This document shows positions 3,001 to 6,000 of a DNA stretch of 28,290 nt, piece after piece (within the stretch, counting starts at the first letter, position 1; each line of letters starts with the position of its first letter). Made by a program: the position numbers. Origin of the DNA: a virus; UHGV virus genome UHGV-0284664. The stretch is one strand, 5' to 3'.

Positions 3001-6000
3001 TGGTGGGCGGTCCGCAATCAGGTGGCGGACGCGCTACCGGAAGCGGTATTACGTCGTTCGCTGGGGTTGCGTGCGGAAAAAATTCGCTCTGTGTACAGTG
3101 AAATCGACATCATACCGGGAGAGCAGACCGCCACCAGCATACTGAAACAGCGCACAAAAAATCTTGCGCCGCTGCCTCACGCCCACCAGCAACAGAACCC
3201 ACCACAGGAAAAGACGGTGGTCAGCATTGCCGTTGATCCCGAGTCACCGGCTCAGTATCTCCAGCGCCAGAAATCACAACGGGAAGAGATGCCTGTATAC
3301 ACGCGCTGGGTAAAAACGCAGAAATGCATGACGTGTGGCAATCAGGCAGATGATCCGCATCACATCATTGGTCATGGACTGGGAGGGATGGGAACAAAGG
3401 CTGATGATTTGTTTGTTATTCCGCTGTGCCGTAAATGCCATAGCGAACTACACGCCGGGGTAAAAGATTTTGAAGAAAAACACGGCAGCCAGCTGTTGTT
3501 GCTGATTCGTTTTTTAATGCACGCGAGAAATTCGGGTGTTCTGAAGTGGAAAGCATAAATGACTGAACGCATAGAATTTGTTTTGCCTTACCCGCCAACG
3601 GTGAACACTTACTGGCGTCGTCGTGGCAGCACATATTTTGTATCAAAAGCCGGGGAGCGTTATCGCCGGGCAGTGGCGCTTATTGTTCGCCAGCAGCGGC
3701 TGAAATTAAGCCTGTCCGGAAGGTTGGCAATAAAAATTATTGCAGAACCACCGGATAAGCGCCGCCGTGATCTGGACAATATTCTGAAAGCGCCGCTGGA
3801 TGCGCTGACGCATGCGGGGTTGCTAATGGACGATGAGCAGTTTGATGAAATCAATATCGTTCGTGGTCAGCCAGTATCTGGTGGACGTCTGGGGGTGAAG
3901 ATTTACCCCATAATGCATGAAGAGCAGGTCAAAAAATGAAACTGGAAGATTTACCGAAATACTACTCCCCAAAATCCCCCGGCCTGACTGATGCATCGGC
4001 CTCAACGTCGAAAGATGCGCTGAGTATCACTGATGTGATGGCCGCGCAGGGCATGACACAGAATCGGGCTGAGATGGGGTTTTCTGCGTTCCTGGGGAAA
4101 ATGGGCATCAGTATGAATGACAGGGCGCGGGCAACAGAATTACTGGCAGATTATGCACTCAGTCGGTGCGATCGTGTGGCGGCGTTGAGAAAACTTCCGG
4201 CAGAAATAAAACCGGTAGTGATGCGCATTATGGCTTCGTACGCTTTTGAGGATTATGCCCGCAGCGCAGCGAGTAAAAAGCAGTGCCCCTGTTGCCGAGG
4301 GGAAAAATTTATTGAAGGCGAAGTTTTTACAAACAAGGTTCAGTATCCGGATGGCAAGCCGCCAGTATGGGCAAAGTGTACGAAAGGTGTGTATCCGTCT
4401 TACTGGGAAGAATGGAAAAAAATTCGGGAGGTGGTGAAAGTTTCTTGTCCTGAATGTAAAGGGAAGGGGGAGATTTCCACTGCCTGTAAAGACTGCCGTG
4501 GGCGTGGTGTTGCCATTCATCGTGAAGAGTCGGTAAAACGTGGTATGCCTGTTATCAGAGACTGCCAGCGTTGTGGTGGTCGTGGCTGTGAAAGACTACC
4601 ATCAACGGAGGCATTTAATGCCATACGCAAAGTGACGAGTGCTATCACGCTTGATACGTGGAAAAAATCAGTGAAACGCTTTTACGATACGTTGGTGGTT
4701 CGGTTTGACATTGAAGAGGCATGGGCGGAGCGGCAGTTAAAGAGGGTAACGCGATAGTGTTGTTGATTTTTCCCGAATCTGTGGTAAATTTGCTCTAACG
4801 ATAGGCGTTTTATGCCTGACGTTAGAAGATTTTTTACACCCCGCCGCCTGGCGGGTTTTTTATGACTGAAATCGCGTCAGTACAGTAAACGCGCTGGTGG
4901 CGGTGAATACCTGTCTTTCAGCTTGCTGGCTTTTTCGACAAGAGTTATTGGTGTGTCACGTTAACCGGAAAAGGGAAAAAGACATGCTAAAACAGCAGGA
5001 TATGACAGAAGCCGCCAGAGTGGTGTTTAATGAATTAAGCGTCACCGAACCGGCGACAGTCGGGGAGATTGCGCAGAATACTTACCTTTCACGCGAACGC
5101 TGCCAGTTAATACTGACTCAGCTGGTTATGGCGGGTCTGGCAGACTATCAGTTCGGTTGTTACAGACGCCTTCCGCAGTGAAGGCTTTTTTATTTGTGGT
5201 AAATGGGCGGCTGGTGGGTGTTAGGGGCACCCACCAGCCATCTGCTCATGCGTTGGGTTCACAAGCAAACCTCAGGCCCACTGCTTTGCGCAAAAGCAGA
5301 ATGAGCCTATCAGAGACAGGCTTAATGATCCATGCTTAATACTGTAAAAATATCCAGTTGTGAGTTAATCAACGCCGACTGCCTGGAATTTATCCGGTCG
5401 TTACCCGAAAATTCTGTTGACCTGATAGTCACGGACCCGCCGTACTTTAAAGTGAAGCCTGAGGGCTGGGATAACCAGTGGAAGGGCGACGATGATTACC
5501 TGAAATGGCTGGACCAGTGTCTGGCGCAGTTCTGGCGGGTGCTGAAACCTGCCGGAAGTCTTTACCTGTTCTGTGGTCATCGCCTGGCATCTGATATCGA
5601 AATCATGATGCGTGAACGCTTCAGTGTGCTGAACCATATTATCTGGGCGAAGCCGTCCGGACGCTGGAACGGGTGCAACAAGGAAAGCCTGCGGGCGTAT
5701 TTCCCCGCCACAGAGCGCATTCTGTTCGCGGAACATTATCAGGGGCCGTATCGTCCGAAAGATGCCGGGTATGCGGCGAAGGGCAGTACACTGAAACAGC
5801 ATGTGATGGCCCCGCTGATTTCTTACTTTCGTGATGCGCGCGCGGCCTTGGGGATAACGGCAAAACAGATTGCAGATGCCACAGGAAAGAAAAACATGGT
5901 GTCGCACTGGTTCAGTGCCAGTCAGTGGCAGCTACCGAATGAAAGCGATTATCTGAAATTACAGGCGCTGTTTGCCCGGGTGGCAGAAGAGAAGCATCGG

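Follow-up and report, generated by a model that had tools for sequence, protein, structure and literature searches.

Positions 3936 to 4866 of the viral genome UHGV-0284664, a stretch of 28,290 nt that was analyzed as a whole and that we call the window, hold a gene for a Q-like antitermination protein and, directly behind it, a compact unit made of a promoter and a terminator (Table 1). A first-pass annotation had pointed there to a Q-like open reading frame (ORF), a TTGATT hexamer, a 16-bp spacer, a TG, the hexamer TAAATT, and a hairpin with a T6 run, and each of these elements lies where it had been noted. The segment 4700-4900 is 100% identical to several Escherichia coli chromosomes. In a strain with such identity, the annotated gene order is DUF968, RusA, antitermination protein, hypothetical protein, DNA methyltransferase, three tRNAs, SASA esterase, holin, and lysozyme; judging by this order, the source neighborhood is therefore a lambdoid prophage of E. 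coli. A 201-nt query of the junction found matches in 1,704 of the 5,426 complete E. coli genomes, and the copy of the type strain ATCC 11775 carries a single difference over the 201 nt, at position 4803 (A in the window, G in the type strain). The wider comparison set consisted of 80 viral contigs and of 67 loci with genes for relatives of the window Q, taken from different species. On the strength of these sequences, the unit is very probably the late-gene antitermination cassette of the prophage, working like the Q/pR'/qut/tR' system of phage lambda.

Table 1. Features of the Q cassette and its immediate surroundings (positions in the window)
Feature	Position	Strand	Basis
Q-lambda-family antiterminator gene, 273 aa, stop codon TAG	3936-4757	+	ORF; PF03589, 7UBM, PHROG 127, AF2 model
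-35 hexamer TTGATT, pR' equivalent, 6 bases past the Q stop	4763-4768	+	Sequence
16-bp spacer TTTCCCGAATCTGTGG, candidate Q-binding element; extended -10 TG at 4782-4783	4769-4784	+	Conservation, motif covariation
-10 hexamer TAAATT, same as in lambda pR'	4785-4790	+	Sequence, lambda alignment
TTGCTC, possible landing site for repositioned sigma region 4	4790-4795	+	Lambda alignment
AACGAT, putative sigma-dependent pause element (-10-like); first A is the predicted +1; AGG next (4803-4805)	4797-4802	+	Lambda identity, spacing
Predicted 5' hairpin of the transcript, nt 1-27	4797-4823	+	Folding
A/U-rich single-stranded linker AGAAGAUUUUUUACAC	4824-4839	+	Unpaired in minimum free energy and centroid structures
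Intrinsic terminator, tR' equivalent: CCCGCC (4840-4845), loop GCCT, GGCGGG (4850-4855), T6 (4856-4861)	4840-4861	+	Terminator scan, folding
Predicted terminated transcript, about 60-66 nt: 5' hairpin, linker, terminator hairpin, U tail	4797-4862	+	Sequence, folding
65-aa TrmB-like ORF	4984-5181	+	PHROG 331, E = 3e-37
Second terminator-like hairpin, after the TrmB-like ORF	5168-5185 or 5168-5191	+	Terminator scan

The assignment of the gene to the Q-lambda family, which confirms its earlier description as Q-like, is supported by both the sequence and the predicted fold of its product. The protein matched Pfam PF03589 (E = 9e-51; 170.4 bits, cut-off of 26.7) and PHROG 127 (E = 8e-110); a match to DnaJ_CXXCXGXG was also obtained, under the cut-off of that family. 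Its identity to lambda Q is 39%, with a visible insertion, and a phmmer search against the Protein Data Bank (PDB) retrieved chain Q of 7UBM, the Q-lambda loading complex (E = 2.1e-38), residues 1-113 and 183-273 of the window protein being aligned to residues 1-113 and 117-207 of lambda Q. The zinc-ribbon arm starts with a cysteine-rich insertion of 66 residues (approximately 114-179), an extra zinc-binding element that lambda Q does not have and that adds two CxxC motifs (C117/C120 and C171/C174). This CxxC...CxxC unit is a variation on the zinc-ribbon arm, and the protein keeps the characters of the family. The insertion is common in Enterobacterales. Proteins of this long form are not rare, the architecture being found in hundreds of database clusters named "antitermination protein" with lengths of 260-277 aa. 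The window copy has its full length and an identity of 99% to other copies. A qO111-type identity of this protein was rejected, qO111 being a Q of 127 aa.

The residues that matter in lambda Q are kept in the window protein. Residues 1-60 are 50% identical to those of lambda Q, G39, L268 (L202 in lambda), and T272 (T206 in lambda) are invariant, and the zinc-ribbon cysteines C184, C187, C210, and C213 do not vary among 34 homologues. In lambda Q, functional roles have been described for G39, L202, T206, and the four cysteines of the zinc ribbon; its N-terminal segment refolds into a nozzle at the RNA exit channel, which is contacted by C-terminal residues (PMC9388147). The AlphaFold2 (AF2) model of the window protein (pLDDT of 70) gave confident body helices (60-112 and 223-272), includes a helix-turn-helix, and predicted residues 1-41 to be disordered (pLDDT below 50), as in lambda Q. 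When this model was compared with the PDB using Foldseek, the only hits at E ≤ 0.001 were Q-lambda chains (E down to 1.5e-11; TM scores of 0.62-0.77 on the target).

The promoter behind the gene reads TTGATT-16-TG-n-TAAATT, with the TG at -15/-14. When aligned on the -10 hexamer, the window (TAAATT-TGCTCT-AACGAT) and lambda pR' (TAAATT-TGACTC-AACGAT) have the same hexamer, the same gap length of 6 nt, and the same AACGAT, and 18 of the 27 bases from the -10 hexamer to +15 are identical. The 18-nt pattern TAAATT-N6-AACGAT has exactly one match in the window, where about 0.003 would be expected (12 specified bases, two strands). We take AACGAT to be the -10-like pause element of lambda pR', with its first A as +1; since the spacing in the window is identical to that of lambda, transcription is predicted to start at 4797 and the pause would fall near 4812-4813. 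The sigma-dependent pause element of the lambda cassette is the site of Q loading, and a role has also been described for the -35-like element next to it (PMC9388147). The window has TTGCTC where lambda has this element (TTGACT), a single base ahead of the pause element. The -35 hexamer of the promoter itself is kept as TTGATT or TTTACT across the clade of 273-aa proteins. Among 76 close relatives from the viral contigs, the pause hexamer varies (AATGAT, AATAAT, AACTAT, AACAAT, and AAAGAT) and always retains A2 and T6, as would be expected of a -10-like element, in which these positions matter most. Separately, many relatives from outside E. coli (loci L011-L039) carry, between the Q stop and the -35 hexamer, a 9-bp inverted repeat ending in TTTACTTTT (for example, TAGCTTACG...CGTGAGCTA in L013); the window lacks this repeat, its -35 hexamer coming 6 nt past the stop.

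The spacer between the two hexamers, which is written TCCCGAAT in the window, is the candidate Q-binding element. The Q-binding element of lambda lies between the promoter hexamers, and the candidate of the window has the same location. In lambda, this element belongs to the late promoter, where the helix-turn-helix and the zinc-ribbon arm read it (PMC9388147). In the clade carrying the motif TTTTCC(C/G)GAA (31 unique sequences from many genera), every column across the -35 hexamer, the spacer, and the -10 hexamer shows a conservation of 90% or more, with Q proteins that are just 53-62% identical to the window Q. Conservation is 40-60% in the 6 nt past the -10 hexamer, 80-99% in the pause element and the GGG that follows, and 50-60% further downstream, a profile that fits a protein-binding spacer. 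Across the 67 loci, six classes of spacer motif coincide exactly with six classes of helix-turn-helix sequence, and they do not track N-terminal similarity. Class A combines the helix-turn-helix ITLDTWKKSVKP with TTTTCC(C/G)GAA, class B LTDYQWYKGYAD with TTCAAAA, class C LTQSSWSRNWKP with TTTGCATAAA, class D LNERTWRRNWKP with TTTGTCCG, class E VPETTWRRSYK with GGCGATTTTTGT, and the lambda class LTQPTWSRTVKP with TTGAATAA. In the recognition helix, class C has QSSWSR and class D ERTWRR. A Pectobacterium protein of 271 aa has the lambda-type helix together with the lambda-type spacer. Lambda differs from the window in both the spacer (TATTGAATAAA versus TTTCCCGAAT in the window) and the helix-turn-helix (38% identity to the window Q). 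Covariation of this kind would be expected of a cognate Q-binding element and points indirectly to the spacer. The proposal of a lambdoid late promoter with a candidate qut site is supported by comparison, through the -10 hexamer, gap, and AACGAT of lambda, the retention of A2 and T6, and the spacer classes.

The hairpin that follows the promoter was listed by the terminator scan and has six GC pairs (-12.6 kcal/mol). It starts 49 nt past the -10 hexamer, 43 nt past the predicted start, and 83 nt past the Q stop, which places the terminator at +44 to +65; the estimate of a 60- to 65-nt transcript is therefore right. The recurrence of this arrangement in relatives agrees, together with the sequence, with a tR'-like terminator and a product of approximately 65 nt, as had been suggested. 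Most loci (Escherichia, Klebsiella, Enterobacter, Kluyvera, Serratia, Providencia, and Photorhabdus) show a GC-rich hairpin and a T run 25-62 nt past the pause element, suggesting that compact units, with RNAs of about 55-80 nt, are the norm of the family. A promoter-to-terminator unit was found downstream of the Q homologues in most of the 67 genome loci and in 76 of the 80 viral ones. The long exceptions are lambda, whose terminator lies near +194, and a few loci with a lambda-like 6S sequence (L033 and L040).

Sequence comparison indicates, moreover, that the Q/qut module meets the downstream module at the terminator. In Shiga toxin 2 (Stx2) phages and phiP27-type phages with a 127-aa Q, similarity to the window begins exactly at 4840 and continues downstream, and the phiP27-type units have an identical terminator hairpin and all the downstream sequence in common with the window. 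In mEp460 and Evi, it is the Q gene, the promoter, the 5' hairpin, and the terminator that are common with the window, and divergence begins right past the T run. The 10-mer TGTGGTAAAT was found twice on the + strand, at 4780-4789 (extended -10/-10 of the late promoter) and at 5195-5204, directly after the second terminator, and in Kosakonia (L060) the first terminator is directly followed by TGTGGAAATGGGCGGCTGGTGGGTG; consequently, the approximately 330 bp with the TrmB-like ORF (about 4863-5194) look like an inserted module. We also observed that 933W (L176, 227-249) and the phiP27/qO111-type loci (L170-L172) also have a promoter-proximal terminator of the same AACCCGCC...GCGGGTTTTTT type, some 35-45 nt past a TAAGAGTGG element. 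In 933W, it is upstream of the terminator at 430-458 of the locus, which the 933W record annotates upstream of the tRNA genes.

Past the terminator, the order is the TrmB-like ORF, the second terminator-like hairpin, a DNA methylase, three tRNAs, two STnc100 copies, a nanS-p-like esterase, holin, endolysin, terminase, portal, major head, major tail, and tape-measure genes. Every gene downstream of the terminator is on the + strand, a layout that makes the remainder of the window a single co-directional late operon, which looks intact. Between 3500 and 7700, we found 15 terminator-like sites, versus 5.0 ± 2.2 expected, and several of those past the first terminator, including the 5168-5185 hairpin, precede the lysis genes; polymerase modified by Q would need to read through them. 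Such enrichment fits a need for processive antitermination. The unit had been described as the switch for the whole downstream window, and the layout upholds this, with the lysis, terminase, portal, head, and tail genes all on the + strand behind further terminator-like sites. In the Stx2a phage Stx2_EH1910, a cassette 90% identical to that of the window is followed by the same module and then by stx2AB, which lies approximately 2.0 kb downstream of the cassette.

Other features were observed in or near this operon. The two Rfam STnc100 small RNA (sRNA) copies, at 6756-6946 and 7224-7433 (+), scored 161 and 136 bits (gathering score, 47). A terminator-like hairpin closes each copy, and both occupy the slot that holds stxAB in Stx phages, flanked by the tRNAs on one side and the nanS-p-like esterase on the other. 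Just upstream of the methylase gene, at 5205-5243 (+), a GC-rich hairpin that lacks a T run is very stable (-29.8 kcal/mol; z = -4.8); Rfam gave a sub-threshold match alone for it (P26, E = 0.01). The tRNA at 6431-6506 (+) was called Met (anticodon CAT) by ARAGORN and is tRNA-Ile (ileZ type) in RefSeq and phage records, presumably being read, once modified with lysidine, as Ile. Upstream of the Q gene, a subtilase-family ORF at 183-1811 (+) corresponds to IetS of the IetAS anti-phage defense system (PADLOC, E = 1.8e-240); it covers profile positions 206-748 of 749 only, the N-terminal ~200 residues being missing or out of frame.

From the family of the Q protein, the sequence elements, the conservation patterns, and the operon layout, which are observed, we infer the start site, the pause, the binding of Q to the spacer, and the Q-dependent read-through of a lambda-like switch. 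Without Q, the promoter at 4763-4790 would fire from about 4797. Sigma-70 would then bind again, to the non-template AACGAT, and the polymerase would pause some 16-17 nt downstream, escape, and terminate at 4840-4861, releasing an RNA of about 65 nt. The 273-aa Q, made from early transcription, would bind the spacer between -35 and -10 with its helix-turn-helix and zinc-ribbon arm and load onto the paused polymerase, which would become resistant to the 4840-4861 terminator and to later ones. The methylase, the tRNAs, the nanS-p-like esterase, and the lysis and structural genes would then be transcribed.

Known systems resemble this cassette to different degrees. In the lambda Q/pR'/qut/tR' system, Q is homologous and of the same fold, the late genes are preceded by a terminator, and in the absence of Q a short terminated RNA is made (6S RNA), which is unrelated to the window RNA beyond about +25. 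In the Qin cryptic prophage of E. coli K-12, a promoter, AACGATGGGC, a 5' hairpin, and, within ~65 nt, a terminator lie behind a Q-lambda-family protein of 250 aa (ydfT/quuQ); the Qin cassette differs from the window in its spacer motif (TTTTTCAAAAAA), its helix-turn-helix class, and its protein sequence (~40% identity). No RNA is annotated in the Qin unit past ydfT, and a literature search on ydfT/quuQ returned nothing relevant. The cassettes of the Q21 and Q82 families, including those with a qO111/phiP27-type Q of 127 aa, share their logic and position with the window but differ in the sequence of the promoter and pause element (TAAGAGTGG type). Their Q proteins are reported to be unrelated in sequence to Q-lambda, and Q21 to be unrelated in fold too (PMC9388147). 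StxS is a functional sRNA derived from the pR' transcript of Stx1 and Stx2a phages and made in lysogens (Sy et al. 2020, PMC7547250). Like the predicted window RNA, it is a by-product of an antitermination-controlled late promoter just past Q, and it comes from the same place in the genome, ahead of the tRNAs and the position of stx. However, StxS accompanies a Q of 144 aa and is a 74-nt RNA that RNase E releases from a transcript of 258 nt (PMC7547250), whereas the window Q has 273 aa and belongs to another family, and the window RNA is a predicted primary transcript of about 65 nt.

In the predicted fold of 4797-4863, nt 1-27 form a 5' hairpin, the next 16 nt are A/U-rich and single-stranded, and the terminator hairpin follows; the minimum free energy is -23.1 kcal/mol (z = -3.75). 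The 5' hairpin alone has -10.5 kcal/mol (z = -3.8), and none of 200 shuffled sequences was as stable. In this hairpin, the bases of the pause element pair with CGUU (4820-4823), and the inner stem is AGGCGU/AUGCCU. It includes the pair A7-U21, formed by the A allele of 4803, which strengthens the hairpin (-10.5 versus -9.3 kcal/mol). Other lineages have other hexamers with matching partners (UAGUG/CACUA, UAAUG/CAUUA, and AUUGUGG/CCACGAU), and in 36 gap-free relatives 92% of the 5'-hairpin cells are paired, compared with 29-41% in slid registers. Since these 36 relatives showed no two-sided compensatory change in the 5' hairpin and the shuffle control was not exceeded, we make no claim of covariation for it. 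When the outer helix of this hairpin was compared with shuffles sequence by sequence, it was not individually significant (p of 0.03-0.9), and close relatives alter positions 3-4 of the pause hexamer without compensation. RNAalifold found no consensus structure in a MAFFT alignment of 50 diverse units, because the hairpins were misaligned. It is likely that the 5' hairpin forms; selection on it would be without the support of covariation in these alignments. The single-stranded linker is among the least conserved parts of the unit.

The search for a known counterpart of this RNA covered several sources. Rfam gave no match at the gathering score over 4760-4866 (best weak match, E = 9.2), a literature search with exact sequence strings of the short RNA matched no paper, a comparative paper on Stx pR' contained no definition of the window promoter, and a search for expression data on the short RNA found none. 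HnrS, a 66-nt multicopy prophage sRNA of enterohemorrhagic E. coli (EcOnc10-12), was rejected as its identity, since the HnrS region has no significant match in the window; in Sp12 of strain Sakai, HnrS has an Rz-type endopeptidase gene on one side and DNase/terminase genes on the other, and it is oriented against the late genes. StxS was also rejected, given its other Q family, its other size, and a match to the 933W pR' region (blastn-short) of only 11 nt in the terminator stem. A peptide frame inside the RNA (ATG at 4812, 17 codons) was discarded because its length and content vary in relatives. It is plausible, from its predicted form, that the short RNA acts as an sRNA. A more specific proposal, in which the ~65-nt pR' RNA is a stable, possibly Hfq-associated, trans-acting sRNA and the 5' hairpin burying the pause bases has been selected family-wide, either stabilizing the RNA or aiding escape from the pause, is speculative, and we regard it as doubtful.

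Several points weigh against a lambda-like switch at this locus. The whole case is computational and is made by sequence, comparison, and predicted structure. The promoter matches 8 of the 12 consensus positions, which is under the threshold of 9 of a generic scan and explains its absence from the scan list. The AF2 model of the enlarged arm is moderately confident only (pLDDT of 56-77), and the -35-like element at the pause site is poorly conserved (40-60% in the clade). Finally, the window has a rare A at 4803, the first position of the GGG after the pause element (GGGC in 79 loci, AGGC in 1), and the one copy with AGGC among the fetched loci is that chosen for its 100% identity. This GGG acts like a discriminator contact for sigma region 1.2, and the A might weaken pausing or Q loading in this prophage. 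A cassette right in kind but impaired or silent here, with the A making pausing and Q loading inefficient, would be in keeping with these counts and with 4803 being the sole difference from the type-strain copy over 201 nt. We nevertheless consider it unlikely, since the full-length Q is 99% identical to other copies and the late operon looks intact, the independent lineage of Scandinavium (L046) also has AGG, again with a U opposite in the hairpin, and the A7-U21 pair makes the 5' hairpin more stable.

The other two explanations question the role of Q at this unit. In one of them, the unit is mainly an sRNA gene, a moron equipped with a promoter and a terminator of its own and placed after Q by chance or convenience, and Q does not act on it. 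The predicted RNA does look like an Hfq-type sRNA, with its 5' hairpin, A/U-rich single strand, and terminator with a U tail, and Stx phages make a functional sRNA from pR' (PMC7547250). Yet the promoter-proximal part is co-inherited with Q, the spacer motif covaries with the DNA-binding region of Q, the lambda pause element is at the exact lambda position, and conservation in the linker, the would-be seed, is among the lowest of the unit, all of which makes this explanation quite improbable. An sRNA role and a Q-switch role are not mutually exclusive. It is still harder to believe that the hairpin is a plain terminator of the early rightward (Q) transcript and that the promoter-like hexamers are fortuitous. 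Lying 83 nt past the Q stop, the hairpin would indeed also stop non-antiterminated polymerase coming from upstream, and the promoter is under the scan threshold; but a chance origin of the hexamers is at odds with the exact match to the -10/gap/pause element of lambda, with the conservation of at least 90% of the -35 to -10 block across genera, and with the same architecture in most of the Q-lambda-family loci inspected.

Q/pR'/tR' cassettes set the timing of the lysis and structural genes of prophages and, in Stx phages, of the toxin. The type of cassette described here is very common in E. coli, and in at least one Stx2a phage it is directly upstream of stx2AB. The textbook mechanism of antitermination is left unchanged by the window, whose cassette is ordinary but well preserved; the points of interest are the recognition code between helix and spacer and a possible role of the short RNA in its own right. 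The helix-turn-helix and spacer classes provide a ready-made candidate for such a code, in which the recognition region accounts for most of the differences between closely related proteins. The analysis also flags an unannotated short RNA, which lysogens are predicted to make constitutively. If this RNA is indeed a stable trans-acting sRNA, it would be carried by roughly one third of the complete E. coli genomes, those holding the element.

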